The notes under the pieces: generated by a model
Database searches by the model: none
Seen by the model: only the letters and a program-made list of their open reading frames with translations
What the model was told of the DNA's origin: nothing
Position numbers and translations under genes: made by a program
Shown here: positions 5,602 to 27,556 of the stretch, piece after piece
How the letters are laid out: the number at the start of each line of letters is the position of its first letter
Position numbering within the stretch: position 1 is the first letter of the stretch
Source: Macrostomum lignano
Lineage: Eukaryota
Assembly: GCA_002269645.1 (NCBI GenBank)
Contig: NIVC01000384.1
Span: 434,001-498,000 of the forward strand
Direction of reading: 5' to 3'
Length of the DNA: 64,000 bases

Positions 5602-8600
5602 ATGGAGCTGGGACCTCGGCCTCGACCGCAGACGAAGAGCCTCTGGAAGGTGTCAATCAGTGGCACAGCGCCGCCAGGTATTTTTTAGTCCGAAAAACGG
5701 ATTACAATTAAACAAATTAAGTTTCTGATCCCACTGAGGCACTCCCTCCCCCAAACTCGGCAGTGACCTTGAAGAGGGGCGGCCTGGTACCAGCGATAGG
5801 ACGCGCGGCGCAGGCTCAGCAGCCGCAGCAGGACGTGATGATTCTGATGTCGAGCGGTCAGGAGCTCGAGTTCCGCCTGGCGCCCGAGCTGTCGCAGTCG
5901 CTAAAGCCCGGCCAGCTGCCTGACGAGGACGGAGCCGTCAGCAGCACCGGCCCGCGAGCGAAGCGACGCGCCCCAGCTCAGCGGTCGCAGAAGCCGCCAC
6001 AACAGGTCACCGTTGGAGTTGTGCAACTCGGCGATGTCTATGAGTTGCCGCCGGCCGCAGCCCCTGTTTCCACATCAGTGCAGAGCTTCTCAAAGACGCT
6101 GAGCTCGATGTCACCTGGCCAGGCCGTGGAGGAGTTCTCTTTGGGTCGAATATACCCAGGAGCTCTCGGGGCGCCCAGAGCCGGGCGCATGCAGCTCGTG
6201 GGTCAGCTGCAGCCCATCGCTGAGCCGGACGAGGAACCGAAGCAGCAGGCAAAGTTTCCCGGTCTGCCAGAGTCCAGGCATCCCCGTAGGCAGCCGAAGT
6301 TTATGCAGCAGTTGCAGCAGCAACAACAACAGCAACAGCAGCAACTAAAACAGAGTTGTCAATTATCGCAGCCGAAGCAACAGCAGTTTAGCTTCGGTCA
6401 ACTACCTGAAGCCAAGCAGGTTTCGAGGCTTCCTCAGCATCTTCAGCAGCTGCAGCAGCATCAGGAGACTCTTCAAGGCCAGTCGGAATTGAATCTGAGA
6501 CGCGGAGCGTTCCCTGTCTTGCCACCGACAAAACAGAAGAAATTGACTGGGCCAAAACCAGAAGGTGAGTCGCAACATCAGAAGAGTGTTCAACAAGGAA
6601 CAGAGTTGCGGAATTCTTTGTTAGAGCCGCTGCTGCAGCAGCAGCCTCAGTCAGAGCAGCAGCCACTCCAGCAGCAACTGCTCCAACAACTGCTCAACCA
6701 GCAGCAGCCTCAGTCAGAGCAACAGCAGCAAATGATCCAACAACTGCTCAACCAGCAGCAGCCTCAGTCAGAGCAACAGCAGCAAATGCTCCAACAACTG
6801 CTCAACCAGCAGCAGCCTCAGTCAGAGCAACAGCAGCAAATGCTCCAACAACTGCTCAACCAGCAGCAACAACTGCCTCAGTCAGAGCAGCAGCCACTCC
6901 AGCAGCAACTGCTCCAACAACTGCTCAACCAGCAGCAGCCTCAGTCAGAGCAGCAGCAGCAACTGCTCCAACAACTGCTCAACCAGCAGCAGCCTCAGTC
7001 AGAGCAGCAGCAGCAACTGCTCCAACAACTGCTCAACCAGCAGCAGCCTCAGTCAGAGCAACAGCAGCAACTGCTCCAACAACTGCTCAATCAGCAGCAG
7101 CCTCAGTCAGAGCAGCAGCCACTCCAGCAGCAAATGCTCCAACAACTGCTCAACCAGCAGCAACAACTGCCTCAGTCAGAGCAGCAGCCACTCCAGCAGC
7201 AACTGCTCCAACAACTGCTCAACCAGCAGCAGCCTCAGTCAGAGCAGCAGCAGCAACTGCTCCAACAACTGCTCAACCAGCAGCAGCCTCAGTCAGAGCA
7301 GCAGCAGCAACTGCTCCAACAACTGCTCAACCAGCAGCAGCCTCAGTCAGAGCAACAGCAGCAACTGCTCCAACAACTGCTCAATAAGCAGCAGCCTCAG
7401 TCAGAGCAGCAACAGCAGGATGTACTCGCTCAGTTGCAGCAGCAGCAGCAGGACCGCCAACTAGCGGAACGCGAGCAGTCAGAGCAACTTTCGTTTCAGA
7501 ATCAATCTCAGCTAGATGAGCAGGAGCAGCAGCATAAGTCTCAGTCAGAGCAGGAGCAGCATGCTGGTGAAGCGACAGATTCAACTATTGACGATGCTGA
7601 CAAGACACCGACATCGAAGACGCCAGTGGAGACAGACTCAGACAAAGAATCGGACAAAGACTCAGAAGAAAGCGAAGCTGCGATGCCGCTTGACGATGGC
7701 GAGGATCTGGGAGACGAGGAGGAAGAGCTCGAGGCGGTCGACGAGATCGACGTTGAAGAGGACGAGGAGGACGACGACCTGCCGGAGCTCGAGCTGCTGA
7801 CCGGACCGCTGAGCCTGGGCCGCCACCCAACCGTTGACGCGGTGTTCAGAGGCTCTCTGGACGATCTGCCAGCGATGCCAAGTAAAATTGTGCGAATTTT
7901 CACCAGCTCAACGTTTACGGGTGAGTTTTGGTTGAGAATTGGGGAACGTCATCCCATCAAAATATCTTGGCTCCGTAGACCTCGTGATCCTACGCTGTTT
8001 GATGTTTAATGCAGACACCGGAGTGGAGCGCAACTCTCTGATGGAAAGGGTCTATCCGAAAATCAAGGAATACTGCCGGGAGAAGCACGGGCTGGAATTT
8101 CAGGTAGGACTGAAATATTTATCGATTTCTGGTAGGTCAACTGTCTATGGCAGTGAACGAGGCATAGAAAGCACAGACAGAATGCCCACATATAGAACGC
8201 ACCTAGACAGTAAGCACATAGAAAGAATAACAGGGACAGAATACACATGGACAAAATACACATGGTGGACAGAATACACATGGACAGAATACTACGTAAT
8301 GTGCAGATTGTTGTTGATTTTGGAGGTGAGGTGGGTGTCAGAGCCAATGCAAATTCAACGCCTATCTAAATACATTAGACCGATTCTAATTGGTCCAGAG
8401 TCATTATGTGAGACATTTATACTCTCATGTAAAATCTATACATGTAATCAGTGTACACTGTGTCGTACAGCAGCGACGACCAGTACAATATAGTACGCAT
8501 AATTAGCGCTTCACCGTAGCAGTTGTACGCAGAAACGCGCGCGCCCCCAGCCCCGCACAATGCAGCATTGGTGTACGCAGAATTAACTGTCCATATTAAC

Positions 8601-11600
8601 TGTCCATATACCAAAAATTGGCAGAATTAGAGCGCCCACCCACCCCATAACTGTCCATATTATTACTTGTCCATATTTACTGTCCATCCCAAAATTGGTG
8701 TACGCGCAGAATTGTAGCGCCCGCCCACCCCATAACTGTCCATATTATTACTTGTCCATATTTACTGTCCATATATACACCCAAAATTGGTGTACGCACA
8801 GAATTGTCTGTGACCCCCACAAAATTGGCGGCCCCACGCGGAGGCATGATGAGTCAGTCAGCCAGTAAATCGCCGCTGTCCACCCCTCTGCCCTGCGCTG
8901 GCCGCTATAGCTACCTGCAGCAGTGTTACGCAACAACCCGGTCGAGCCAAAATGCTAACTTTATAGCCAGACACGTCATCAAGGTCTGAAAACACAAACT
9001 TCTATGCATGAAATATTCTCGTTTAACAAGATGCCAAACCAATTTTGTTCAGACAGCAAACTATAAATAAGAAAATTTGGATTCTCGGCCGTTTATCTAA
9101 ATTCACCAAGTTCAATTAACATCCCAATCGTGTGGAAAACGCAGTGTTTGACAAGCAATTTTTGGTTGCCAAAGCACAAGAGGATCAGACCGCCAAAGCA
9201 TGAACTGCCAACAACTTGGAGCAAGGAGCAAGGCCTCCAACGCCAGCACCGAAAATAGGTACAAAAGGCTCATTTTTTTCTGGAATCCTCGATAACGACA
9301 ACACCGTAAAAAGCTCGTTAACATGTAATTAAAACAAAAACTTATTGAGACTCTCGGGTATATAAGCACCAACCTGGAGCACCAAGCACCCGTACCTGCA
9401 AATTTTTGTCGGATTCTCGGCAGTTTTTCAAGCTCGAATAACATCCCCACCACTAGTGCGAACAACGCAGCAAGTGCTTGACAAGAAATGAGCTGGATTT
9501 CCAGAGACTACCCCCTATTATCGAACGAGGAAAAAGACGAATATGAGGCCTTGAAAAAATATGCTGACTGGTTGTGCATTTGCCACAGCAAACCGATTTC
9601 CGAGCGATTAGTCACCTTCAATGCCAAGGTCGAGGAAATTGATCAAGGCCCCTACGACAGCCAAGACTACGCAGCAGCCAGGATAAATGAGCAACTACGG
9701 GACAAAATGAGATTCAAAGCTGATTTAGCACGAATGGAGAGACTACTGGCTCCGATACTAAGTGAAGAGCATCGCCAAAAAATACGTTTTCGGAACCATC
9801 AAGATCTGTATAATCCGTCGTGGGAGGAGCAACAAAAGATTTGGAATTTTTGGCTGCCAAAGCACAAGAGGAACAGGCCGCCAAAGCTTGAACTACCATC
9901 AACTTGGAGCAAGGATTTCAGCACACCCCCAACGCCAGCACCCGAAAATAGGAACAAAAGGTTCATTTTTTCCGGAATCCCGATAACGACAACTCTGTAA
10001 AAAGCTCGTTATCGTGTAATTAAAACAAAAACTTATTGAGACTCTCGGGTATATAAGCACCAGCCCGGAGCATCTGCAAGCGCCCGTACCTGCAAATTTT
10101 TCTAAACAGACAAGAGACATGGAGACAGTGCAAGACTTCAACTGCGTCAAGCGAGAGCTGCTGGCACTCAAACCGCGAGGTCCGAGCTTCAACGGGGTTG
10201 AAACGTTTGACATTGAATATGACGAACAGGGACCTCTCTACTTGGCCAATGCGGTCCCTGTTTTGATCGTCAAGGGCGTGCGTACTGACAACGAAGGTCG
10301 CGAATTCATCATCATTGCACAAAAACACATTGAAAGCTGCATACCCTACACTTTCAACACTGTGGCGGAGCACCTTTCCAGCGAAAGTCTAGCTCTGCTG
10401 GGCTACAACCCAGCGTTTGGAGGTGACAGTGCAGCGTTTGGGCTGGCTCACGACTTTAAAATGTACGACCAAAACGGACTGCCTGTAGAGGATTACAAAA
10501 ACAAGAGCGGCTACTACAGGATTCTGTTTACTCTCGACACGGCCGTGATTCGAGACGCTGTTTTGACCGCAATGCCAAAAATTCAACAGCTACAGTTTGT
10601 CGAAGAAGCCAAACAGGCATTCGATCGTTGCTATTGGACGCCACCTCCAAAAATCAAGGTAGGCGCCAAGAAAGTAAGCAAGAAAGCAAAGAAACCACCA
10701 AAGCTTGTCAAGGAGAAGCAGCCAAAGGTGCCTAAAAATCAGGCCAGAAAGCGACAGCATCAATCGAAACTAGTAGCAGCCAACGAATCAAAGAAGCGGT
10801 CGAAAGCCCCAAGAAGGATACGAAAGTAAAAACTGCCGAAAAATCTACTTGCAGAACGTCGAGTGTGTGAACCGAGTGTTTTGCGCGAAATGGAGCCGCA
10901 TGCCTGACTTGGACTGGGCGAGCGCACGGACATTTCGCAGACCAAGAGCTCTTATCAATTTGCGAATAGGAAAATGTACAATCAACTTTTTTCAGCGTTC
11001 TTTGTCTGCAATTGTATTCGGTTGTCGCTCCATCAACCAAGTTTTGCGTCTTTTTCCTCAATGTAAACCAATTTCTGTTGTTGTTACCACTAGTACTTAC
11101 CGCGCTGAAGTAGACAGATGGCCAAACTTTTTCCAAATTGCATACCTCGGGTCCAGCTGGGTGAAGTGGGAGTGTGAAGTTTTCAATGGAATAGTAATAA
11201 AGTCTCCATTTCGCAATGCTAAATGTTTATTATGCGGAAAGAATGGCCGCCTTGTTTTCCTTGGAATACGAAACTTTAAAGAGCTCTGTCAAATGTACGA
11301 TCATGTGACTAGCGTTTTGCATGTCTAATCCATGTAGCTGTTGCGTAACTTTACTGCTTTACCACTGTACCGAATTTGTATGTACGTACAAGCTGCTATG
11401 AAATTGTCTATAAATATATTGTGCATAAATTGCAGTGCACTGCAACCAACATGACAAACGGAATCTCCAGACTATGTTCTTGTCGCGGCGAGCTCGCAGA
11501 GCTCGCCAAAGCCCGTCCCACTCTTCGGCGGGCCATTATTCGAGGTGCAGGCAAGGAACTGATTCATTGTCTCTGTGAATTGAGTCACAACGTGCTCCGG

Positions 11601-14600
11601 GGAAATATCGATCTTTCTCCGAAACAGTATCTGCGATTAAAGCGATACAGAAGATCGTTGCGTGAATTGGCAGACACAAAATTGTCTATAAATAGGAAGA
11701 AGAATATGCTTCTCTCGAATCCTCAAGTCGGTGGCTTTCTACCCATCCTTGCATCTGTTGCTGCACCGCTAATATCAAGCCTGTTTGGCGGACTACTTGG
11801 TCGCTAAAATGAATAAATACGTTGTTGTACCAGAAGAAGAATTTAATAGACTAAGTCAAGGCGCACCCCGAGAAATTGCATCCAAAACAGAATATGAAAA
11901 ACTCATTGAATACAACACTCAACTCCAAAATAAACTAAGTCAGATCAAGCAAAAGAAGAGTAATCGTTTTCCTGAACGACAACAACGTGTTTGGGACATG
12001 CTGACAGAAAGATACCCAAATTTGGAGTACAACAAGTCGTGGGAAATTGTATTTGATGGAAAAACCTGGCCAGGAAGCAATATTTTCGATCTATTGAAGG
12101 AGATTACATCGAATGAAAGGCGCGACCGCCCAAGCCCAAAATATAGTACCGCTTTTTGGGCCCTGGCCGAAGAGGCAGATATTGCAAAAGCTCTACTAGG
12201 ACGACGCCAACAAGAAGAAGTCAGTGTGAAAAAAGAAGTCGGCACGGATCCGGATCGAGACGATTTTTTAGTCGAGCAAGCAATTGGAACTAATGATTTC
12301 TACAACGACTTCCACAAAGACCAAGCCAGTGGCCTGAATGAAATTAAAAAATATGAAGATCGTGGCAGCGATGCCTACAGGCATGCTTCATACCAACTTC
12401 GCGAACCAAAGAGGCGGCAGAAACCAGCAGTAAAATACGAGACGTTAAAAAAACTATAAATAGAAATCATTTTCATGATATATAATCTGTTTTTGGATCA
12501 TGGGTGCCGCAGCTGTAACTTCAAAGCTTTGCTCAGACAAACCGTCTGTGGAGTTCAAGTGTAATTACTCATGCTGTGCATCGAATCTAGTTGCGAATGA
12601 GGGTGAAAACCGCTCTTCGGAGAGTGTACGAACAGGGGGACGCCGCTTTTACAAATGCTGCCCGTGTATATCAGGAGGCCAAACGGCTGGTCCCCTCCCT
12701 GACGAGACGCCAAACCGACGAATGGCTGAAGACCCAATCGAGCTACACCCGGCACAAGAGGGTTAAAAGAAAATTCCAAACAGGAAAAGTAATGTCAGGA
12801 GGCTTCATGGAAACTGTGCAAGCGGATTTGATGGACATGTCGCGATACGAACAATGGAATGATGGTCATCGATATATTCTAGTTGCAATTGACGTGCTTA
12901 GTAAATTGGCTTTTTGCAGCAATAAAATTGAAAAGCGACACTCCAAAGGCTTTTGAAAGCATGATCAAAGACTTCCCCATTAAGCCTTTATATCTACACG
13001 TTGATCGAGGTACCGAGTTTTATAACAATCGCATGCAGAACTTACTGAAAGCCCATAATATCAAAATGTACAGTACAAACTCTGTATACAAGGCAAATAT
13101 GGCTGAAAGGCTGATTAGGACTCTCCGAAAACGTTTAGCTCGCTACTTTGAGCATAAAAACACGTGGCGTTGGATCGACTATTTGCCAATATTGGTTAAA
13201 AGTTACAACAACACAGTACACTCTACTATTGATATGAAACCTTCGAGTGTCGGTCTGCACAATCAAAAAGAATTGTGGGAAAAGCTCTACAAGGATCCTG
13301 AATATGATGAACCAGTTTACCAAAAAGGGGACTTTGTCAGAATTTCAAAATCTCGTCGAGCCTTTGACAAGGAAGCATACGATATGTACAGCGAAGAAGT
13401 TTACGTTTTGTCTCAAGTATGCCCGGGACCGCCTCATTTTTATCGCATTTCCGACCTCATCATTTCGTTAGTTGGCGCGGCTATCCCGAGTCGTTCAATG
13501 CATATGTACCAGTTGAGGAAGTTATAAATATAAGACAAGGATGAGCACACATACACTCGAAACGTGTAGTATATTACAATGCATCTATTCCTATCTAGCA
13601 ATGCGTGCGTTGAGCACTATCCTGAGAATAATTCGGCACATTATAGCATTAATTTGCCCGACACCCTCCACTTTCCGAATCATGAAGTCTGCATCGAACG
13701 GATCTACTTTTGTAAAGAATTCAAAACCGTCCCCGATAATCGAATGGTTGATGTCCTGACCAACGCTCCCGAGGATGAAGTGATTGACATTGAGGTGAGA
13801 GAAAAACCCGCCTCCACGTATAAACAGTTTGCGTCGGTTTCTCTCCTCGCGGGGCTATCAACAGCCAACGAAGTGGTTGATGCAATCATCGCCGATCTAA
13901 AATATGAGCAAGACGATAATGCGATGATTTGCATTGAGCGTTCACAGGAAGGCCAAATTTCAATTGTGAACAAATCATGGTATGGTGCGAACATTAGGCT
14001 GTCCAGTAATGTGCGTAGCATGTTTAAAAAGGTTGATGACGCTGGAAATAAATCAAATATCGAAGTAACGACTTTTTTATTAAACCCAAGAAATTCGTTA
14101 GTATTCGCTATAGAATTGGAGTCCTCCTCCTCCATAGAGAGTCCCATGACTCTAACGTTTGAAAAGAGTGTCTGGCCTTCTAGAACGTCACTGCGGATTG
14201 CTAAAGGATTCTACCGCACGCCTGATGAGCTCTTAAATTATGTTAATGGAGCGCTTTGGGGCGTCGTTTCAAAGCTCCCAATAAGTCCAGCGACGAGAGT
14301 GGATGCATTCCGCTACAACCCTTTTCTGAACCGGTGTGAGTACAAACCATTGAAAACATTTTATTCGACATTGGAGAGCTTGCTGCCATTCTCGGCTTTC
14401 GCGAAGATGTTTTCAATGAAACTCCAAAGACCGCTAAACGACCAATCGATTTAACAAATGGTGTACAAACTATGTACATCTATTCAAATATTGTCGACTC
14501 TGCCATTGTTGGAGACGTCAAAGTCCCCCTGCTTGGGGCAATTCCTTTGAATGAAAAGGTATACGGCGAACGAGAGTACTACGAGTTTGTCAATCCATCC

Positions 14601-17600
14601 TACTTACCGTTGGTGAAACACCCATTCAAAACCATTGAGGTGCAAATCTGTGACGATATGGGCAAGTTAATGGATCGGATTCTTCGAGGCAAAACTGTTT
14701 TATCGATCAACATTCGTGAAATTAAGCTATAAATAAAGAAGTTTTCACGAATAAAAGGTAGCAACTGATCGACAATATGCCTTCAATCTTGATCGGAGGA
14801 GCTTTACCGGTATTTTCCGGTGCACAGCGCGGCAACGGCCTGTTTGGCAGCATTGCCCGATTTGCCCTGCCAATTTTAAAGAGTTTTGGCAAAAATATTC
14901 TTCGCCACGGAACACGAGCCCTAGCTACAACAGTTAGCGACACACTCGATCAAGGCGGGAACTTGAAAGAAGCGGCATTGCGTAACTCTGTCCAGGCAGC
15001 TAAAGATGCTTTCAAGGACACAGTCGCACAACGAGGTAGCGGCAGACAAAGACGAAGAAAGATGACTAACAAAAAAACGAGAAAAAGACTGCAGCATTCT
15101 GATATTTTCGACTCTATAAATAAAAAAACCCGTGCCAAAACTGATCTGTCTATTAGAGCACCACACTAAGCCGCTGTTGAAAGAAAAATGACTGAGTGCC
15201 TGTGTACAAAGTCGGAATTCGAGCTATTTGCTCCTCGCGCACACCAAATTGCTGCAATTAGCGCTACCACTGAAGAAGTTCACCCTGTTGCCAGTGTTGA
15301 AAATGCCAGCGTGGTCGAATTTAGGATTGTTGGTGGTGAGACGTTTATCGATCTTAACGACATTGACCTCGAGATTAAGGCCCGCGTTAAGCAGTCTAAT
15401 GGTACAAATCTTGCTGCTGATTCGAATGTTGCGCCGGTCAATTACGTCCTTGAAAGCATGTTTAAAAACGTCACGTTGACAATCAACGGGACACAAGTAG
15501 AGTCGAGCAATAACAACCACGCTTACAAGGCCTATATTCGCACGTGTTTGAATTACGGACACGATTCAAAAACCAATCAACTGAGAATGATGGGCTACGC
15601 AAAGGACGCTGGAGGTCAAATGGCTGTGGTTGGAAATCCTGGCTTTGTAGCCCGCAAGGCGATGGCGGCAAACTCACGCACTTTTCACCTTTATGGACCT
15701 CTTAGTTTAGACTTTTTTGTTACCAACGACCGAATGCTACTACCATACACTGATATGGTGACTACGCTGACCATGCACAATTCCGGCTTCGTTCTGGAAA
15801 ACCACGCGGACGGGGTTGATGCGCGGCTAGTACTCGAGAGTGCCAAACTACATGTGCGCCGCGTCAAGGCAAACCCCCAATTGGCATTGGAGATTGAAGA
15901 ACAACTAGGCAAACAGAATGCAATCTATCCGATTGAGCGACTTGTTGTGCACAACACTTCAGTGGCTGGCGGTGTTCGGGACATGTCAATCAACAATATA
16001 TTTCCTGAACAAAAGCCTAAACTAGTGGTTGTTGGCATGGTGAACAGCGGCGCGTACAACGGTGTGGCTACACATAACCCGTTTAATTTTGAGCCATTTA
16101 GTGCCGACAGTGTCGCTCTGTATAAGGACGGAGTCAGTCTGTGTGGACAACCGTTTACTCCTCGATTCGGTGTTCATAACTATGCTCGCGAGTATGCCAT
16201 GCTACTAAAAAGCCTAGGAAAGATGAATCGGGACCTGGATATTGACGTATCATATTCCGACTATGGAGCTGGCTACTGCTTCTTCGCCTGGAATCTCATG
16301 CCCGACATGGAGCTGGGCGGGCATAGCATGCCTCGCGAGCGAGGGAATCTGACGCTACAAATAAAGTTTTCTGCTGCCTTGGCCGCAGGAATCAACGTGT
16401 TGGTGTTTGGCTACTTTGACAATACTGTGCAAATCACTCGCGGTCGTCAGGTTATTCTAGACTACGTGTAGAAACAAACATCTCTTTTTTATTCTCGAAT
16501 AACGACCATATTCATGCCGATATGAATAGTCTAGATATATTAGAACGTCTAATACTACCTGTCCCTGTTCGAGTAACACCAGTTGACAGGATTCCGCAGC
16601 CTGTTTATCCTGCTGCATACGTGATTAACTTTGACACTGGCAATCTACCAGGCACTCACTGGGCTTTAATTTGTCTTCATGCCGATGAGAGCGTGACATT
16701 TTTTGACCCCTTGTGTATCGATCCTGTGCCAGATTTATTAAAGTTGTGGATCGCAAAGTATGTCCCTGTGGAGGTGGCCATGAACCGGCATCCTGTACAG
16801 CATCAGCTAAGTGTGACCTGCGGGGCTCATGTAATATTTGTGGCTGAAAAACACTTTCTGGAGGGTCTGTCAATTGAAAAAATATTGCGCGACTGTTATA
16901 GCACAAATCTTTACGAGAACGACTTGATGGTGCAGAATCACTGTCTACAAATAAAGCAGCATCATCCATAAATATGATTGGGCTGCCTATCAAAATGTAT
17001 CAAACAATAGACCCCGACTCTTTAAAATTTGCCCCCAAAACGTCGGCAATTTTTGCTGGGGTGGCTCAAAGCGGTAAGACCACACTTGTGAAAAACCTAT
17101 TGAGACAAGAATTTTTTCAAGATCCGAAGCCGATTCGCGTAGACTGGTTTGGCCACTATCCGGATCCTGAACTGTTTGAATTGCCGTACCCTGTAAATTT
17201 TCGTTCGTGTACATTTGATCCTGAACAATATGTCCCTGAACCAAATATTCTGCTTGTCGTCGACGACCAAATGCATGCCATGGAAAAGAGTGGCGCTTTT
17301 ACAACTTTTTTCACGCGCAAAGTCTCCCACGTGGGGTTCCGACTTTGGTATCTTGTGCAAAACCTGTTTGCAAAGGGTAAGGAGCACCGAACTCAGTCGC
17401 TCAATTCGAACTACCTTGTTTTATTCCGCAATGTACGGGATGCCAGCACAGTGTCTCATATTGCAAGGCAGCTGGTCCCCACTAATCCAAAAAGTTTTGT
17501 CAAAACGTATGAGGATGCTACTCGCGACCCCTACTCATACTTGATTGTAAACTGTTTGCAAAATGCTCCTGCTCGCTATTATTCAAACGTTTTGGGTCGT

Positions 17601-20600
17601 CACCCAATTGTGTATGCTAAATAAATATACGTATCAAAGTTCGGCCGGCTTTTTGTGTAAATATATATATACACCTTTTGAAAACTTATTTGGGAGAGGG
17701 GTTGGGGGATGACGTAATTGTCTCGGAGTGTCGACGAGGGCTGAATTCTAGAGAGTGAAGTATGGAAGGAGTGGAAATAACAGGCTGCAGCAGCGATTTA
17801 CAGCGGCTGACTCATCATGCCTCCGCGCGGGGCCGCCAATTAATTGTGAGGGGTCACAGACAATTCTGTGCGTACACCAATTTTGGGTGTATATATGGAC
17901 AGTAAATATGGACAAGTAATAATATGGACAGTTATGGGGTGGGCGGGCGCTACAATTCTGCGCGTACACCAATTTTGGGATGGACAGTAAATATGGACAA
18001 GTAATAATATGGACAGTTATGGGGTGGGTGGGCGCTCTAATTCTGCCAATTTTTGGTATATGGACAGTTAATATGGACAGTTAATTCTGCGTACACCAAT
18101 GCTGCATTGTGCGGGGCTGGGGGCGCGCGCGTTTCTGCGTACAACTGCTACGGTGAAGCGCTAATTATGCGTACTATATTGTACTGGTCGTCGCTGCTGT
18201 ACGACACAGTGTACACTGATTACATGTATAATTAGATTTACATGAGAGTATAAATGTCTCACATAATGACTCTGGACCAATTAGAATCGGTCTAATGTAT
18301 TTAGATAGGCGTTGAATTTGCATTGGCTCTGACACCCACCTCACCTCCAAAATCAACAACAATCTGCACATTACGTAGTCAGAATACACATGGACAGAAT
18401 ACACATGGACAGAATACACATGGACAGAATACACATGGACAGAATACACATGGACAGAATACACATGGACAGAATACACATGGACAGAATACACATGGAC
18501 AGAATACACATGGACAGAATACACATGGACAGAATACACATGGACAGAATCCACATGGACAGAATACAAATGGACAGAATAAACATGGACAGAATACACA
18601 TGGACAGAATACACATTGACAGAATACACATGGACAGAATACACATGGACAGAATACACATGGACAGAATACACATGGACAGAATACACATGGACAGAAT
18701 ACACATGGACAGAATACACATGGACAGAATACACATGGACAGAATACACATAAACAGAATACACACGCCAGGTCGTCGACATGCGCTGGGGAGTAAGAGA
18801 TGAGGCCACTGACGATCACATGACAACGGAGCTCTGCCTACGCGAGATCAAGACCTGTCAGAGAGTCAGCGTTGGCCCAAATTTTGTCGTCCTGCTCGGC
18901 CAGAAATACGGCTACCGGCCCGTCCCAACCCTGATCGACGCCCAGGAGTTCGACATGATCGTGGCCGCTGTGCGGCAGGGCGGCGCAGAGAAGGACGCAG
19001 CCTGCCTGGAGCGCTGGTACAAGCGCGACGCGAATATTGTGCCACCTGTGCAGGTCCTCCAGCCGATATCGTCCATATTGATTCACTTCAATAATAAGGT
19101 GAGAATTGGGGATTGGGGAAAGGGGAAGGGACAGAGCATCTAAATTATGGTTAATGCGTTGTTCATTCAACTTTGATAAATTGTGTAATGTGCAAGAAAA
19201 TCCTCTTTAATTAAATTCCATCACATACTAAAATAACTAGATGGGCCACTCAGGCGCAAAACAGCTTTCTACTTTCAGTTCAGTAGCAAAGAGGAATGCA
19301 TAAGCTATTTTATAAAAATAAAGGTGGCTGAGATGCTTTTGACTAACTTAGAAGCCAAGCTTGCCAACGTAAACAGCTTGCTAATTGGTTCAGCCATAAT
19401 GTACATTAGCCACTGAAATGTACATGGCAGATTTAGGCTGGAACAACCGAGTAAGACAAAAAAAATTGGGTGGTGGGGCAGGGTAAATATGTGTGGAGTT
19501 TGAGGGTTTAAGCTTGGGAGGGGGTAAGGGCCAATAAATGAGCCTTGGCTTTAAAAATACATTAAAATACTTCAGTTTAACTTGCTACTGAACTGAAAGT
19601 AGCTTACACGCAAATGCGCTGAGTGGCCTATCTAGTTATTCTAGTATCTGTGAGTTCAATTAAGCAATCTACTTTGATTTCTTTTGCAACACAAAAATTA
19701 CGAATTTCAGGACAAGGTGGGACGAAGCCTCTCTGTAATCTGATTTTAGATTAATTCATTTTAGAGGCTATTAATTCGGAGTTTTTTTAAGCTTTCAACG
19801 TTATTCTATCAGGTTTTACTTCTAATTGTTGTTTTGGGTGTCCCATATTATAAATAAATGACATAATTTATAACTGCCTGATAAATGTTTACAAGCTAAA
19901 TTGTGCTGCCAAATATCTGGATGTTAAAAATGAAACTTTAATATTAAACCCCGCTAAACTCTGCAAACTTGACTGCACAACTTCCCCAAAAACCGCAGGG
20001 CATGCAAAAAATGATGGAAGCTCACCAGAACGAATGGTGGTCCACAATGTCCTCGATGCAAGTGATCTTTCGACAGGCCGCCGATTCGCTGTTTGCCCAG
20101 GGAAAACTTGACGCAGACCAGAGGCACAACTATTTCATGTCGGGTGCGTTTCCAAGCTGATTTTGAATTTTTGACAGCATCATTAGATCGGTAAAAATGC
20201 CTGTGAAGTTTCCTAAACGCGTCCGAGAATCTGAGATTTCGAGGTTCTTTCCCGAGCAGTGTCCGAGGATCATTCCCAAACAGTGTCCGAGGATCATTCC
20301 AAAACAGTGTCCGAGGATCATTCCAAAACAGTGTCCGAGGATCATTCCCAAACAGTGTCCGAGGATCATTCCAAAACAGTGTCCGAGGATCATTCCAAAA
20401 CAGTGTCCGAGGATCATTCCAAAACAGTGTCCGAGGATCATTCCAAAACAGTGTCCGAGGATCATTCCAAAACAGTGTCCGAGGATCATTCCAAAACAGT
20501 GTCCGAGGATCATTCCCAAACAGTATCCGAGGATCATTCCAAAACAGTGTCCGAGGATCATTCCAAAACAGTGTCCGAGGATCATTCCCAAACAGTGTCC

Positions 20601-23600: not shown

Positions 23601-26600
23601 ACTGCCGCATTGTCCTGATTGCTCCTCAGGTGAGAGACTGGTTTCAAGATGAGCAGTCTCAGCTGCAGCAAGTGGAGCCCTGCATCGTATTCCGACTGTT
23701 AGGTACGTCTCCGCAGAGTTCCTCTCTGCTAGTCCTGCTCACCAGCCTGTGTCACCAGCTGAGCTTTCTCTATGAGCAGCGCACGGTTGACATCCCCGAG
23801 GAGTTGCCCCGACTTATTCAGCACTTCAAGCAGCTCATGACCTTCGCCACTCTGCAGAGACCGCTGCTGGTGTTCCTTGACTCTCTGGAAGAACTATCGC
23901 CTGAGAACAATGCTCACCTGCTCCTGTGGCTGCCAGATAAGCTTCCACCAAACGTCAAAGTAGTATTGTCCTCGTTGCCAAACTTCCATGGCCTGTTGAA
24001 AACATTTAAGCTGAAGGTATCCAGAACTGAGAACTTCTTAAAGCTGGACGATCTTGGCAAGCCGCTGTCGCTTGAGGTGCTGAAAGTGTGGCTCCGGTCG
24101 GCTAACCGAAGCATCACCGAGCAGCAGTGGCAGGTGGTCGACAAAGCCATTTCAAAGTGCGCCTCACCGCTGTTTGTCAAGATTGTCTTCGACGAGATAA
24201 CGCGCTGGCGCTCCTACGATTCGCCGGAGAAAACCGTGCTGTCCTTCAACATCTTCGACGGCATCATGCAGCTGTTCCAGCGCATCGAGAACCAGCACGG
24301 CCTCATACTGGTCACCCATGCTTTTTCCTACATCACAGCGTCAAAGAGCGGCATCTCCGAGTCCGAGCTGGAGGACAGCCTCTCCTTGGACGAGAAGGTT
24401 CTCAACGATGTGTATCAGTACCACCTGCCTCCCAGCAGGCGCATTCCTCCGCTGCTCTGGACGCGAATTCGCAATGAACTGCCCGGCTTCCTGGTTGAGA
24501 AGGAAGCGGACGGGGCGAGCGTGGTCTACTGGTACCACCGGCAGTTCTTCCAGGTATGCGAGAAACGTTACTTTAAGAATCTCAACTTCAAATCGAGCAT
24601 CCATTCGAACCTGGCCGATTACTACCTGGGCAAGTGGGCCGGCGTTCCCAAGCCGTTCGCCTACAGCGAGCTGCAGAAGCAGCGCTTCGGATTGAAGGAC
24701 GTCAATTCAGAGAGCGACCGGATGGTACCGCCGCAACCGCTGCGTCTGAACGACGGCACCTCGCGGACAGCGGCTCGGTACAACCTGCGCAAGCTCAGCG
24801 AGCTGCCCTTCCAGCTGCTCAAGTCCGGCCGAATGGCGGAGTTAGCTAGTGAATGCCTCTTCAACTACCAGTTCCTTCATGCCAAGCTCAGCGCTTTTCC
24901 TCTGCAGGCGCTCTTGTCAGATCTGGACAGCATGATCGCGAAAACCAACGACAAGGACGCTCGGATTCTCAGCGAATGCCTCCGCTTATCAGCCAGCATC
25001 ATCACCAAGAGCCCGAACATGCTAGGGCCGCAGGTCAGTGGTCGCCTGTTGCCCTACTACGCAAACTACGAAAAAGTTCGCAACCTCATCCACGAGTGCG
25101 ACCGGGAAGGCCCGACCCACTGCGCTCTGGTGCCTGGACATCACTATCTGTACACTCCGGGTGGACCTCTGGAGTACTCACTCGAGGGTCATCAGTTTGC
25201 CTGCTACGGTATGCAGGTGACCAGTGACAGCAACTACCTGGTATCCGTGTCCAATCAGTTCATCATCTGGGACCTGCAGACAGGAGAAATATTTCGTAAT
25301 ATACCTGTGCTCGGCCTGCAGGGAATCACTCGCGGGATGAGCGTCGATTCAGAGGACAGGCGGGCAGTGAGTTACACAAGCAACAACCAGCTGGTGTTCA
25401 CAGACTTGGTCTCCGGTGAGCATAAGTTCTACGATATGCCCAGGGAGGCCGAAATTCGCGGGGTCTTAATCACATCGGCGACCTGCCTTGCGTATACGGC
25501 GCGCGGCTGGTCGGAGTTCAGTCACTCCGCCGAGCTGACGAGCTCAAATCAGCTGCCTGAGAAAGAAGACGGCTGCGTCGAGGAGATTTTGCACTTTGGC
25601 TTTAGCGGAGACAGCGGCGGTGGAGATTCCGACAGGGAATTCTACTTCTGCACATCCGTTGCCATGGTAGACGCACGAGGCTCCGGCGGCGTGGACGCCG
25701 GAGAATCATCAACGACTAGAGAGTTTAAGCTTTACTTTTGTAGAGACATTACGCGCAGCCTTCGCTACCACACAGGTCTGGCGATGGGTCGGCAGCAGTA
25801 CTTTCTGGCTGAGCGCTCCAAAGAGGACGCCTCGCTTGACTTTGCTATCCATCGATATGTCAGAAACCATCAAGGTGGAAGCGACCGAGACGCTGGATTC
25901 GGCGTTAGAGAGGCAGCCTACGTTCACAATGTCGAGGAGTTTTGCGGCTTGACACTCAGCGATGATGAATCTATTCTGGTGGCCGCCTGCTCCAACGAGT
26001 TTAAGCTGTGGCACCTCACCTCGCAGAATCGTCCCTGCGTTCTGGCACTTCTGCCCAAAGGCTGCCAGAATATACCGAATCGGAACCCTATGCAGAACCT
26101 GGTTGCTTTCAGTCGTGGCAACGAGTTTATGGTTGCCGCTCTGCGCCACTTGGTCCTGGTCTACTCCTGCAAAACCGGCACCCTCATGAAGAAACTGGAC
26201 GCTCATTTCGGCCGCGTCATCGCGTTGACTAGCTCGGCACCGTTGAACCGCCTCATATCATCCGCTATGGACAAAACCATCAAGGTTTGGAACTTCAACA
26301 ACATCATGGAGCGCGTGTTCAGCATTCCCCACATGGAGAAGCCAATAGATTCGATTTCACTAGCAAAAGACGGTAGGACAGCGCTGACTGTAGCTCGCAC
26401 CCACCTGGGGCTGTGGGACCTTCAGCGGGGTCACTTACTGCGGACCTTCTCGGCAAGTGGCAGCGCTATTATCTTCAAGGCGATCATCTCGCACGATGCA
26501 ACCGCAGCCGTATCTGGTGACAACCGACGTCTGGTCTTCTGGCGTCTACCAGAAGGCGAGGCGACGCAAACGCGAGACTGCGGGCCTGTGGTTGGACTCG

Positions 26601-27556
26601 AGCTGTCGCAGGATGGCGCCAAGTTGGTTGCAGTTAGCACTGACAAGCGAGCCCCGAAAACAACCAGCCTGGTGTGCTATTCCATGCCCGGAGGGGAACT
26701 TCTTTTCGAATTCGAATACTACCAAGGCGCCGAGTTTGTGGCGCCAATTTTTGCGCTGGACAGCGCCAGACTGCTCGTGCCATGCGCTGCCAACGACGAC
26801 GACTTTATCGTGTCGTTTTACGACGCCGCGTCCGGTGCTTTCCTCGACAAGACGAAGCCGCGGTTAGGCGGCAATGACGCAAAGCCGGTGCGCCAGCTGG
26901 TGGCCTTGCCCGGCAAGCCGGCCTGGCTCGGCCTCATCACTGAGGACCGCGGACACATCTGGGATGTCAGGAAGAAAGCGGCAGTGCGCTCGGTGCCCGA
27001 GTGGCAGGGCGACGTTACGTCCGACGGCGCCTACGGGCTCTTCTCCCCGCTGATCGGGGGCGTGAAGCTGCTCGACCTGCGCAAGCCGCAGCACTCCAAG
27101 TGGATCCTGCGACGCCAGGCTGCCGACGGAGTCTTCCCCAGCTTGACCGTGTTCACCAACAACGACAAGTACATCGTACACTTTCACAGCGGTCGCAAGA
27201 CGGTGCGGCTTATTCGCGTCGCAGACGGCGCTTTACTAGCCGACTTTAAGGTGCACGCCGAGGTCAAAGCGCTGGTCGGATGTGTTGACAACCTCGGCGT
27301 CGTCTGCGGCGGCGTCGACGGTTCGCTGACGCTGCTGGTGATTGCGGATCCGTCGGAGCCCGACTTCGCCGAGCAACTGGCGTCTCTACCAAGCCGTAGC
27401 GTGGAGTTGGTGCTGCGCGACCGAGCTGGAGGCGGCAGCGGCGGTGGCGACGAGGCTGCGAATCTGCCGATGGCGGCGGGCGTGAGGGTGGCTCGGCTGG
27501 TCAGTCAGTGGCGCATGAGTCGGGTGGACAACTCTAAGGCCTGCTGCGTGCAGTAG
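5602..27556 (+). CDS. NWD2: NACHT and WD-repeat domain protein (NWD1/NWD2 family STAND NTPase), multi-exon
   Basis: Inferred exons: 5602-5677, 5764-7920, 8015-8103, 18772-19098, 19999-20143, 21750-22028, 23002-23147, 23372-23506, 23630-27556. All have GT-AG boundaries with compatible phases. Motifs: [44 protein letters not shown]-loop GDPGCGKT, Walker [17 protein letters not shown]40 repeats, C-terminal CCVQ. NWD1 versus NWD2 orthology cannot be resolved by eye. Confidence 0.92.
6640..7420 (+). repeat. Coding tandem repeat (14 copies of an 18-23 aa unit [18 protein letters not shown]) in the NWD N-terminal exon
   Basis: PQSEQ occurs 14 times in the 5763..8009 translation; DNA units of ~54-69 nt are nearly identical. 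Confidence 0.93.
8160..8290. repeat. Left, degenerate part of the 15-bp minisatellite (GACAGAATACACATG) split by the Maverick
   Basis: Units decay leftwards (gacagaatacacatgg, acaaaatacacatgg, gacagaatgcccacat) and resume at 18380. Confidence 0.8.
8291..8817 (+). repeat. Left terminal inverted repeat of the Maverick
   Basis: Reverse complement of ~17850-18379, except a small indel near 8431-8440; weaker similarity continues to ~8877. Contains internal ACTGTCCATAT subrepeats and an ~85-90-bp direct duplication. Confidence 0.95.
9488..10000 (+). CDS. Maverick left-arm ORF1, 170 aa, unknown function
   Basis: ATG start ~130 nt after a GGGTATATAAGC box. No recognisable motif. Its 3' end is duplicated in decayed form at ~9120-9310. 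Confidence 0.6.
   Translation: MSWISRDYPLLSNEEKDEYEALKKYADWLCICHSKPISERLVTFNAKVEEIDQGPYDSQDYAAARINEQLRDKMRFKADLARMERLLAPILSEEHRQKIRFRNHQDLYNPSWEEQQKIWNFWLPKHKRNRPPKLELPSTWSKDFSTPPTPAPENRNKRFIFSGIPITTTL
10119..10829 (+). CDS. Maverick left-arm ORF2, 236 aa; possible OB-fold ssDNA-binding protein with Lys-rich tail/NLS
   Basis: ATG ~70 nt after the second GGGTATATAAGC box. [11 protein letters not shown]...[10 protein letters not shown]...[10 protein letters not shown] resembles the C-terminal strands of T7 gp2.5/NCLDV-type SSBs (manual pattern match only). The last ~55 aa are very basic. Confidence 0.6.
   Translation: METVQDFNCVKRELLALKPRGPSFNGVETFDIEYDEQGPLYLANAVPVLIVKGVRTDNEGREFIIIAQKHIESCIPYTFNTVAEHLSSESLALLGYNPAFGGDSAAFGLAHDFKMYDQNGLPVEDYKNKSGYYRILFTLDTAVIRDAVLTAMPKIQQLQFVEEAKQAFDRCYWTPPPKIKVGAKKVSKKAKKPPKLVKEKQPKVPKNQARKRQHQSKLVAANESKKRSKAPRRIRK
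10849..11328 (+). CDS. Maverick left-arm ORF3: divergent TATA-binding-protein (TBP)-like protein
   Basis: Two-repeat match to the TBP core: [14 protein letters not shown] ~ NIVSTVNLGCKLDL; [14 protein letters not shown] ~ TTALIF..MVCTGAKS; [12 protein letters not shown] ~ YEPELFPGLIYR; [25 protein letters not shown] ~ [25 protein letters not shown]. The frame is open from 10777 but the first ATG is at 10900, so the start is uncertain. Confidence 0.7.
   Translation: MQNVECVNRVFCAKWSRMPDLDWASARTFRRPRALINLRIGKCTINFFQRSLSAIVFGCRSINQVLRLFPQCKPISVVVTTSTYRAEVDRWPNFFQIAYLGSSWVKWECEVFNGIVIKSPFRNAKCLLCGKNGRLVFLGIRNFKELCQMYDHVTSVLHV
11451..11807 (+). CDS. Maverick small basic virion protein with C-terminal amphipathic GGFLP segment (pX/'gasderminX'-like)
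   Basis: ATG 11451 lies ~40 nt after [27 protein letters not shown]...[11 protein letters not shown] and [27 protein letters not shown] fit the conserved animal Maverick/adintovirus ORF. Confidence 0.75.
   Translation: MTNGISRLCSCRGELAELAKARPTLRRAIIRGAGKELIHCLCELSHNVLRGNIDLSPKQYLRLKRYRRSLRELADTKLSINRKKNMLLSNPQVGGFLPILASVAAPLISSLFGGLLGR
11809..12459 (+). CDS. Maverick conserved accessory protein (PZ-like)
   Basis: ATG 11809 directly follows the upstream stop. The motif [23 protein letters not shown] resembles the W..GE...G..I.GSNI.DL motif of Maverick ORFs that precede the integrase. Confidence 0.6.
   Translation: MNKYVVVPEEEFNRLSQGAPREIASKTEYEKLIEYNTQLQNKLSQIKQKKSNRFPERQQRVWDMLTERYPNLEYNKSWEIVFDGKTWPGSNIFDLLKEITSNERRDRPSPKYSTAFWALAEEADIAKALLGRRQQEEVSVKKEVGTDPDRDDFLVEQAIGTNDFYNDFHKDQASGLNEIKKYEDRGSDAYRHASYQLREPKRRQKPAVKYETLKKL
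12597..13544 (+). pseudogene. Maverick rve/DDE integrase with C-terminal chromodomain, disrupted by a frameshift and an internal deletion
   Basis: Catalytic motifs [16 protein letters not shown] and AERLIRTL, plus YNNTVHS and GDFVRISK. There is a +1 shift at the T-run ~12910-12914. After YRISDL (~13458) the frame jumps to the chromodomain remnant [21 protein letters not shown] (13461-13544), and the usual intervening segment is absent. Confidence 0.9.
13579..14732 (+). CDS. Maverick minor capsid protein (penton), one frameshift near 14370
   Basis: N-terminus LFLSSN...YPENN..HYSINLP..L; C-terminus LAAILGF...[30 protein letters not shown]...YLPL...[11 protein letters not shown]. ORFs 13579..14454 and 14472..14732 are joined by a -1 shift. 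Confidence 0.88.
14777..15169 (+). CDS. Maverick basic core (pVII-like) protein
   Basis: [29 protein letters not shown], second QRGSG, Arg/Lys-rich tail. Positioned between penton and MCP as in animal Mavericks. Confidence 0.8.
   Translation: MPSILIGGALPVFSGAQRGNGLFGSIARFALPILKSFGKNILRHGTRALATTVSDTLDQGGNLKEAALRNSVQAAKDAFKDTVAQRGSGRQRRRKMTNKKTRKRLQHSDIFDSINKKTRAKTDLSIRAPH
15188..16471 (+). CDS. Maverick major capsid protein (double jelly-roll, hexon-like), intact 427 aa
   Basis: CTKSEFELF..., [45 protein letters not shown]...[23 protein letters not shown]...L....[10 protein letters not shown] are all typical Polinton MCP motifs. Confidence 0.95.
   Translation: MTECLCTKSEFELFAPRAHQIAAISATTEEVHPVASVENASVVEFRIVGGETFIDLNDIDLEIKARVKQSNGTNLAADSNVAPVNYVLESMFKNVTLTINGTQVESSNNNHAYKAYIRTCLNYGHDSKTNQLRMMGYAKDAGGQMAVVGNPGFVARKAMAANSRTFHLYGPLSLDFFVTNDRMLLPYTDMVTTLTMHNSGFVLENHADGVDARLVLESAKLHVRRVKANPQLALEIEEQLGKQNAIYPIERLVVHNTSVAGGVRDMSINNIFPEQKPKLVVVGMVNSGAYNGVATHNPFNFEPFSADSVALYKDGVSLCGQPFTPRFGVHNYAREYAMLLKSLGKMNRDLDIDVSYSDYGAGYCFFAWNLMPDMELGGHSMPRERGNLTLQIKFSAALAAGINVLVFGYFDNTVQITRGRQVILDYV
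16522..16971 (+). CDS. Maverick adenain-like cysteine protease (C5 family), intact
   Basis: VINFD...PGTHW (His), FFDP (Asp), Q...S.TCG (oxyanion Gln and catalytic Cys). Confidence 0.93.
   Translation: MNSLDILERLILPVPVRVTPVDRIPQPVYPAAYVINFDTGNLPGTHWALICLHADESVTFFDPLCIDPVPDLLKLWIAKYVPVEVAMNRHPVQHQLSVTCGAHVIFVAEKHFLEGLSIEKILRDCYSTNLYENDLMVQNHCLQIKQHHP
16974..17624 (+). CDS. Maverick genome-packaging ATPase (FtsK/HerA, A32-like), intact
   Basis: Walker [10 protein letters not shown], Walker B LLVVDD, FTRKVSH...[18 protein letters not shown]; AATAAA at ~17620. Confidence 0.95.
   Translation: MIGLPIKMYQTIDPDSLKFAPKTSAIFAGVAQSGKTTLVKNLLRQEFFQDPKPIRVDWFGHYPDPELFELPYPVNFRSCTFDPEQYVPEPNILLVVDDQMHAMEKSGAFTTFFTRKVSHVGFRLWYLVQNLFAKGKEHRTQSLNSNYLVLFRNVRDASTVSHIARQLVPTNPKSFVKTYEDATRDPYSYLIVNCLQNAPARYYSNVLGRHPIVYAK
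17850..18379 (-). repeat. Right terminal inverted repeat of the Maverick
   Basis: Reverse complement of the left TIR; ends in ...TTACGTAGT, followed by the TSD CAGAAT. Confidence 0.95.
18380..18770. repeat. 15-bp minisatellite (CAGAATACACATGGA)n, ~26 copies, running into the splice acceptor at 18771
   Basis: Near-perfect units; the last unit degenerates into ...ACACACGCCAG|GTC. Confidence 0.97.
19220..19652. mobile_element. MITE copy 2 (inverted relative to 4767-5209), in an NWD intron
   Basis: Ends are CACATACTAAAATAACTAGATGGGCCACTCAG and CTGAGTGGCCTATCTAGTTATTCTAGTATCTGTG. The internal sequence matches the reverse complement of copy 1. Confidence 0.75.
20245..20700. repeat. 24-bp intronic minisatellite (CAGTGTCCGAGGATCATTCCAAAA)n
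   Basis: About 16 near-identical units, with degenerate units continuing to ~20870. It produces the spurious ORFs at 19954-20808. Confidence 0.95.

Follow-up and report, generated by a model that had tools for sequence, protein, structure and literature searches.

A diverged TATA-binding protein fold in a polymerase-less Maverick of Macrostomum lignano: a candidate promoter-recognition factor

The closest working analogue of the gene considered here is KSHV (Kaposi's sarcoma-associated herpesvirus) ORF24, one of the mimics of TATA-binding protein (TBP) in beta- and gammaherpesviruses, in which a viral TBP fold is fused to other domains; mimics of this type direct host RNA polymerase II (Pol II) to the short virus-specific late box TATTWAA (PMC12529657). 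Virus-encoded, diverged TBP folds are likewise found in Nucleocytoviricota and mirusviruses (PMC7221094, PMC10132985). The DNA analysed here (the window: 64,000 nucleotides of Macrostomum lignano, assembly GCA_002269645.1, contig NIVC01000384.1, positions 434,001 to 498,000, forward strand) carries a polymerase-less Maverick insertion at 8291-18379 of the window (10,089 bp), in which the frame at 10849-11328 had been predicted from the letters alone to be a TBP-like gene. The reading preferred here, at a probability of about 0.5 for the whole chain, is that its product is a dedicated promoter-recognition factor, which would bring host TFIIB and Pol II to the integrase and capsid-module genes of the element. 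To our knowledge, it is not known how integrated Mavericks switch on their virion genes, a point that bears on whether Mavericks still behave as viruses.

One direct precedent was found, a TBP label in the legend of Fig. 5 (the MELD-virus figure) of Starrett 2021 (PMC8502044); the original prediction, which knew of no TBP in Polintons or adintoviruses, slightly overstated the novelty. The term TBP is absent from one text supplement of PMC8502044, whose supplementary figures may bear on the point, and TBP and TATA are absent from the main texts of 10.1101/2024.03.25.586562, PMC11161782, 10.64898/2026.06.19.733378, 10.1101/2023.10.06.561300 and 10.1101/2023.08.22.554363. The open-access literature yielded no description of a TBP-bearing lineage devoid of the polymerase gene pPolB, of four TBP-bearing animal Maverick lineages, or of the predicted introns or lineage-specific boxes reported below.

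TBP fold, selection and distribution among Mavericks

The 159-codon open reading frame (ORF) at 10849-11328 begins two codons before position 10855. The motifs cited in the original prediction were all located (N8, D20-L21, T44-x-x-x-F48, G58-C-R-S, WECEVFNG and GRLVFLG), as was the shortened helix (seven residues, 62-68 in the model). The AlphaFold (AF2) model (predicted local distance difference test, pLDDT, 83) has TBP topology with two complete lobes. Foldseek searches with this model, one of the checks proposed with the prediction, matched the TBP saddle with a best E of 7.6e-9 and TM of 0.72-0.78 for the top three; 44 matches were obtained at E up to 0.001, and every listed one contains TBP. 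With VIA-align, the model scored Z 14.3 to yeast TBP (155 residues, root-mean-square deviation 3.6); the TBP scores were 14.3, 14.0, 13.3, 13.2 and 11.9, and the best non-TBP score was 7.0. Giant-virus TBPs head the viral structure matches (BFVD). The two-repeat saddle that characterises the TBP family extends over the whole domain.

The window protein alone had no match in Pfam and none by phmmer against the PDB. In the proposed PF00352 check, with its curated cut-off of 22.9 bits, the family-B copy (77% identical) scored 22.5 bits and the database relative P0005 24.6 bits. Lineages 2 and 3, described below, scored 70-91 bits, and lineage 4 was above the cut-off in 3/5 subfamilies. Two database relatives were found at 66-67% identity and four more by profile, one of these four being an archaeal-type TBP, and a 7-sequence profile matched PDB TBPs with a best E of 2.4e-6. 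It is through such relatives that the distant link to TBP is made. The frame almost certainly has a TBP fold. ESM Atlas gave no usable match for the TBP frame or ORF2. Scans for the genomic context of the database relatives returned nothing or one unrelated phage contig (L091) from IMG/VR, and nothing or 14 loci from metagenomes (3 cellular TBPs, 11 weak partial matches). Archaeal-type TBP genes in two metagenome contigs (L120:1675-2265, L121:530-1084) served as outgroups only; their neighbours are, we presume, restriction-modification-like and helicase genes.

The genome was searched with the TBP frame and 90 matches were obtained, a number of matches and not of independent insertions. Family A comprises 21 near-full-length matches at 94-100% identity (2 with a stop), family B 21 matches at 77% (none with a stop), and the remainder are partial or degraded; 40 of the 42 near-full-length copies lack an internal stop. 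Between families A and B, the ratio of nonsynonymous to synonymous rates (dN/dS) of the TBP frame is 0.085, which indicates purifying selection and is similar to the ratios of the upstream ORF2 (0.096) and the C-terminal half of the integrase (0.088), at a dS of ~1.7 that is near saturation. The frame is conserved among copies, a lack of such conservation having been named as a ground for rejecting the prediction, and it is very probably a working gene.

Residue roles were taken from PMC7221094 and PMC12529657, and the first-lobe alignment may be off by a few residues. Retained are the first DNA-contact Asn (N8), F48, F112, the TFIIB-contact glutamates E108 and E110 (positions C.L3.2 and C.L3.4) and the C-lobe Gly. 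The prediction that at least two of the four intercalating Phe persist and that the fourth is replaced was borne out (F48 and F112 are kept; the fourth is Cys129), and the first Phe is lost as well. The second DNA-contact Asn is Thr81, the C-lobe Pro is Asn113, and helix 2 of the first lobe, basic in canonical TBPs, has only about 7 residues in the model, with a 12-residue gap relative to host TBP. The protein is a TBP-family derivative and not a canonical TBP, failing the four-Phe test. Loss of the first-lobe regulator surface has been reported for viral TBPs too, and the TBP positions equivalent to E108 and E110 contact TFIIB and are variable in giant-virus TBPs (PMC7221094). Here, both glutamates are invariant in 7/7 lineage-1 rows (the lineage of the window element), and the site reads Glu-x-Glu in 20/20 rows of lineages 1-3 and Asp-x-Glu in 5/5 of lineage 4. 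Among the rows that cover them, the concave-face residues N8, T44, N46, F48, T81, T83 and F112 are invariant or nearly so. Bases 10849-10857 read Leu-Gln-Asn, like the start of strand 1 of host TBP; the conserved Asn is more likely residue 8 than the one encoded there, at the predicted splice acceptor.

The original prediction had missed that other Maverick lineages of the same genome carry clearer TBPs. A genome scan with PF00352 gave 150 scored matches from 330 candidates; 12 are the host TBP and TRF2-like gene, and all 10 other loci whose flanks were examined lie among Maverick genes (lineages 2 and 3). Three loci each were found for host TBP (L031) and the TRF2-like gene (L037), a single open frame covering the core. 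The lineage-2 TBP has its own ATG, and a convergent pPolB adjoins it in several copies. Eight of 16 elements with 31-33% capsid identity were picked as a supposed TBP-free control, and proved to be a fourth TBP-carrying lineage: TBP frames were found in 9/12 stretches searched, in five subfamilies (40-46% identical to L161), and the three stretches lacking one either do not reach the site or end at the contig start. Four Maverick lineages of the M. lignano genome thus carry TBPs. In a 31-row tree, a branch (support 96/99) sets the 25 element-type TBPs apart from host TBP and TRF2, and another unites lineage 1 with lineage 4 (99/98); this tree contains six cellular rows, no giant-virus rows and 11 database rows without genomic context (P0003-7, P0010-12, P0014-16), and an earlier 26-row run warned of long branches meeting.

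Predicted splicing and upstream boxes

The TBP frame starts with TTG, and no ATG occurs within the 259-277 nt upstream. The sole nearby in-frame ATG (10900, codon 18) was rejected as a start: it is CTA in family B, and its use would remove strand 1. The original prediction, which overlooked the missing start codon, had the gene begin at 10849; the frame is better read as a spliced exon from 10855. In families A and B, a phase-0 donor (AAG/GTAGG) follows codon 180 of ORF2 and a phase-0 acceptor (TTGCAG, A-rich and weak in the window) stands at the TBP start; exon 1 would be 10119-10658, the 196-nt intron 10659-10854, and exon 2, with 157 codons and the stop, 10855-11328, all on the forward strand. 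Both signals are kept in 30/30 loci: the predicted intron measures 196-206 nt in the 21 copies of family A and 67 nt in the 9 of family B. This stretch barely aligns between A and B, identity dropping to 11/30 right after the donor, and the host exon adjoining the element ends in the same kind of donor. Intron length remainders of 1 and 2 are mixed among copies, so there is no fixed frameshift, and a programmed frameshift from ORF2 was rejected because the frame offset differs among copies.

Comparable signals were found in lineage 4. In 5/5 subfamilies the aligned TBP start is immediately preceded by a pyrimidine tract and YAG, with pyrimidines making up a fraction of 0.65-0.9, and the upstream ORF has a phase-0 GTRAGY donor near its end, at a constant position in the alignment; in 4/5 it is the only GTRAG nearby. 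Donor-like sites further upstream (5/5) and the acceptor-like sites listed (4/5) suggest a second, phase-1 intron in the lineage-4 gene upstream of TBP. On these signals, the TBP frame is probably exon 2 of the ORF2 gene, and splicing in cis is the likely way by which the two are joined; the predicted product has ORF2 residues 1-180 and 157 TBP residues, about 337 aa. Unspliced, ORF2 continues to 10829 with a Lys-rich tail, and intron retention would give ORF2 with this basic tail. In lineage 4 (L161:4692-5918, L158, L160, L164, L167), most intron-retained tails are Ser/Asp/Glu-rich. In one family-B copy (G000:C4486:38527-39600), a single open frame of 375 aa spans ORF2 and the TBP frame, perhaps because an indel has joined them. 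An AATAAA at 11196, inside the TBP exon, could end an intron-retained ORF2 transcript.

Exon 1 was modelled at a pLDDT of 33 and had no match in Pfam, PHROGs, NCBIfam or PDB. A suspected likeness of the upstream-gene domain to OB-fold single-strand-binding proteins was unsupported (PF10927 matched nowhere, controls included). A database search for longer, fused TBP forms, which was a weak search, found none.

The reiterated TATA boxes noted in the original prediction are real: in the window element, TATAAATA occurs seven times on the coding strand and not at all on the other (shuffle mean 0.12, maximum 2), and never directly before the TBP frame. Six of the seven boxes lie 42-142 nt before integrase or capsid-module ORFs and are retained in family B: 11409-11416 (42 nt before the ORF at 11451), 11687-11694 (inside the 118-aa ORF, 122 nt before the ORF at 11809), 12455-12462 (before the integrase), 13523-13530 (before the minor capsid gene), 14728-14735 (before the core-protein-like ORF) and 15115-15122 (73 nt before the major capsid gene). 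The seventh (9062-9069) has no large ORF behind it in family A; family B has one before a 117-aa ORF. The boxes are unlikely to be poly(A) signals: two of them fall within ORFs, ahead of the stop, at 73-122 nt from the ATG that follows.

ORF1 and the TBP gene stand behind a different box, TATATAAG, and not behind the lineage box. It occurs at 9359-9366, before ORF1, as a candidate 'early' promoter for host TBP, and at 10050-10057, 69 nt before the ORF2 ATG and at the same place in family B; in lineage 2, it likewise stands before the PC4-like genes and those linked to TBP. An internal duplication of ~250 bp (9157-9407 and 9845-10103, ~89% identity) puts the same TATATAAG promoter block before both ORF1 and ORF2.

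Each of three lineages has its own word. Counts on the plus and minus strands were 7/0 and 5/0 for TATAAATA in lineage 1, 8/1, 10/0, 7/1 and 7/0 for TTAAGAA in lineage 2, and 7/0, 7/0, 10/0 and 5/0 for TATAAG[CT] (TATAAGY) in lineage 4, against shuffle maxima of 2-5; outside its own lineage, each box is only as frequent as chance predicts. About half of the lineage-2 TTAAGAA sites listed are within 34-57 nt of an ORF start, and TTAAGAA is also found shortly before the lineage-2 TBP start. TTAAGAA and TATAAGC fall outside the TATA consensus TATA(T/A)A(A/T)(A/G) (PMC2396422). These counts suggest that three lineages each pair their own TBP version with their own strand-biased upstream box.

Termini and gene order of the element

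The Maverick context proposed originally was confirmed by the termini and genes. The insertion lies in a host intron, within a 15-bp host minisatellite (repeat family D17), and is flanked by 6-bp copies of the target site (CAGAAT, 8285-8290; right copy 18380-18385). As in Mavericks and Polintons, it has terminal inverted repeats (TIRs) of ~530 bp each, at 8291-8817 (arms I2, 143 nt, and I1, 381 nt, 100% complementary) and, on the reverse strand, 17850-18379. The interrupted host gene (7900-8103, 18770-19100, 23837-27556) has a Gln-rich N-terminus and a 1239-aa exon, which we take to be of the NACHT/WD40 (NWD) type.

All genes, integrase and capsid module included, are on the forward strand. 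ORF1 (9488-10000, 170 aa, no assigned function) is conserved in family B (dN/dS 0.15). Downstream of the TBP exon are a 118-aa ORF with an amphipathic C-terminus (11451-11807), presumably pX/GasderminX-like and with a weak homologue in lineage 3, and a 216-aa ORF with no assigned function (11809-12459) and a weak homologue in lineage 2. The retroviral-type integrase (12597-13527, rve E 5e-4) is split into two frames in the window copy and is a single 359-aa frame in family B; the window integrase shares 36-42% identity with integrases of lineage 2, and for one of these rve and chromo matches were obtained. Then follow genes for a putative minor capsid protein (penton; 13579-14732, two frames in the window copy), an Arg-rich core-protein-like ORF of 130 aa (14777-15169), a putative major capsid protein of 427 aa (15188-16471, dN/dS 0.04, no Pfam match), a putative adenain-type cysteine protease recognised by its motifs (16522-16971; the lineage-2 counterpart matches PF00770) and a packaging ATPase with a P-loop (16974-17624). 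The minor capsid, major capsid, protease and core-protein labels are our assumptions. In the capsid, protease and ATPase module, identity to the counterparts in the genome's pPolB-bearing elements is 27-41%.

The missing polymerase, also noted originally, was confirmed: tblastn found no pPolB in 20 stretches around five family-A and five family-B copies, and the same query finds the lineage-4 pPolB at 29-33%. Gene order is the same around these ten copies, and because of both results the polymerase-less state is a lineage trait, the element being a non-autonomous derivative. Polymerase loss may be recurrent: some lineage-4 copies (L143:6826-7917, L166) have only a short piece of pPolB similarity, and pPolB matches in lineage-3 copies L154 and L156 cover only ~230 nt.

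In family B (L116:7030-8197, L113:5439-7462) the termini differ in sequence and two further ORFs, of 259 and 117 aa, lie upstream; the ATPase gene is duplicated in one copy. Lineages 2 and 3 carry a PC4-like gene (L059:2430-3158, L070:606-1301; PF02229 at 22.5 and 15.2 bits, cut-off 25), a second transcription-factor-like gene that is absent from the window element, and an ORF that overlaps or precedes the TBP gene (L075:593-1450 and homologues), which has no Pfam or NCBIfam match and which we take to be exonuclease-like. Lineage 4 has genes for a dUTPase (PF00692) and for a product resembling parvovirus-type phospholipase A2 (PF08398; L143:6042-6575, L140:4045-4464).

Proposed mechanism, alternatives and known systems

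In the proposed mechanism, host TBP and Pol II would transcribe ORF2 from the canonical TATATAAG box. The RNA would either keep its intron, giving ORF2 with a basic tail, or be spliced at the weak acceptor to give the TBP fusion, which would probably be a minor or delayed isoform owing to inefficient splicing. The TBP domain, with one Phe per lobe and an altered DNA face, would then bind the invariant TATAAATA boxes, and Glu108 and Glu110 would recruit host TFIIB and Pol II. Shortening of helix 2 in the first lobe would remove the surface for TFIIA, TAF1 and Mot1/BTAF1 and so bypass host control. The outcome would be an early-to-late switch, followed by virion and integrase gene expression, with DNA replication supplied in trans by a polymerase-bearing element or the host. 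The fold, the purifying selection, the conserved splice-like signals, the lineage boxes and the invariant glutamates are observed; from them we infer the binding to DNA and TFIIB. Dependence on host TFIIB and Pol II is proposed because the element shows no TFIIB or RNA polymerase: a PF00382 (TFIIB) search gave 15 matches at 7 contigs, none multi-copy and none in element ORFs, and could be escaped by a very diverged TFIIB. When the TBP domain was modelled, without alignments, in complex with what the second exon of host TFIIB encodes, the score was 0.00, which speaks neither for nor against binding. The wider proposal, that the elements run a self-encoded, temporally switched programme on host Pol II by alternative splicing and mutually orthogonal TBP-promoter pairs (TATAAATA, TTAAGAA, TATAAGY) that use host TFIIB, is tentative and rated below even odds.

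Several observations count against this reading. Two Phe, the second Asn and the Pro are lost, and KSHV ORF24 needs all four Phe and the Pro (PMC12529657). TATAAATA is itself a canonical TATA box that host TBP could read; no box of these types precedes the protease or ATPase genes of the window element, and the two lineage-3 copies show no single box and none of the three words. The boxes were found post hoc on the same elements, so that their counts are partly circular. As to splicing, lineage 1 has a weak acceptor, with a pyrimidine fraction of 0.4-0.5; both ORFs contain, at other places, stretches of identity no shorter than those around the splice signals; and homology of exon 1 between lineages 1 and 4, though plausible by eye, was not significant (hhalign probability 1%; not above shuffles). 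In 4/4 public runs, Logan contigs read through the predicted intron or acceptor without splicing, and a joint of this kind is not listed; these runs are only guessed to be RNA (the sequencing-run search found no run carrying the element that is on record as RNA), and contigs drop rare forms.

The same role could be played by a TBP domain made alone, through a spliced leader ending in AUG and trans-spliced at the same acceptor or through the TTG start. Trans-splice sites of M. lignano are enriched for the motif [T/C]TNCAG, to which the acceptor TTGCAG conforms, and the published leader ends in an ATG that would be in frame (PMC8629364); the lack of an upstream ATG is in favour, as is, weakly, that of longer fused forms. 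Trans-splicing, however, would not call for the phase-0 donor that families A and B have at one common codon and 5/5 lineage-4 subfamilies at one common aligned position; lineage 4 is without the TTG start, one of its subfamilies having a stop directly before the acceptor, and no spliced-leader loose end at 10855 is among the loose ends listed (14 of 18). We hold this version to be improbable. Somewhat less so, though still unlikely, is a reading in which host TBP or helper-virus machinery reads the boxes and the TBP fusion has another job, for instance to bend DNA at the termini or, together with the exon-1 domain, to link replication with packaging. It would suit a canonical TATAAATA, an eroded DNA face, a domain probably fused to an uncharacterised 180-aa partner and a polymerase-less element in need of a helper. 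TAAAT and TAAG resemble late initiation words of poxviruses and baculoviruses. On the other side, the TFIIB-contact acids are invariant, the non-canonical boxes track the TBP lineages, and spliceosomal introns point to nuclear Pol II transcription.

The prediction had offered an own promoter-recognition factor and a dominant-negative TBP mimic as alternatives; the former is the better supported and gains from the lineage boxes, and the latter appears less likely. A decoy would no longer bind DNA productively and would sequester host TFIIB (or Brf), dampening host transcription or defence. The acidic stirrup of the C-lobe is indeed retained better than any other surface, in contrast to the missing two Phe, one Asn and Pro, and with a weak acceptor a toxic product would be kept at a low dose; but the concave-face residues are invariant or nearly so, and a decoy would block the element's own Pol II genes and leave the lineage-specific boxes unexplained. 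We judge it less probable than either of the two preceding readings. A decayed, captured host TBP without function might be suspected from a sequence too diverged for Pfam and from the many fragments among the 90 matches. This reading is refuted, to within a very small residual chance, by the selection data, and the scarcity of stops, the confident full fold and homologues in all four lineages examined also contradict it.

If the preferred reading of a dedicated promoter-recognition factor is true, host Pol II is redirected by a single protein of a 10-kb element that has neither RNA polymerase nor TFIIB, TBP has been naturally reprogrammed to non-TATA words, and spliced genes, which ORF-based surveys miss, join Maverick annotation. 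Four TBP lineages, three with their own box, in one flatworm form a ready-made matrix for promoter specificity.

With cellular TBPs (PF00352; here host TBP and the TRF2-like gene), the element protein shares the same two-lobe saddle over its full length at 15-19% identity; it differs in having no start codon, in probably standing behind a viral exon and in being carried by a mobile element. With other Mavericks, Polintons and adintoviruses (PMC8502044), the element shares TIRs, the 6-bp duplication and integrase, capsid, protease and ATPase genes, and is set apart by the absence of pPolB, TBPs in four animal lineages, predicted introns and lineage-specific boxes. The proposed route would also be distinct from those of the giant viruses and herpesviruses. 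Giant viruses for the most part have a TFIIB gene of their own, and the two glutamates are variable in their TBPs (PMC7221094), whereas this 10-kb element keeps both. KSHV ORF24 is a TFIIB-free mimic, which lacks the TFIIB acids, binds Pol II directly and needs five viral partners (PMC12529657); the Maverick TBP, in contrast, keeps the acids and two Phe and has no known partner.

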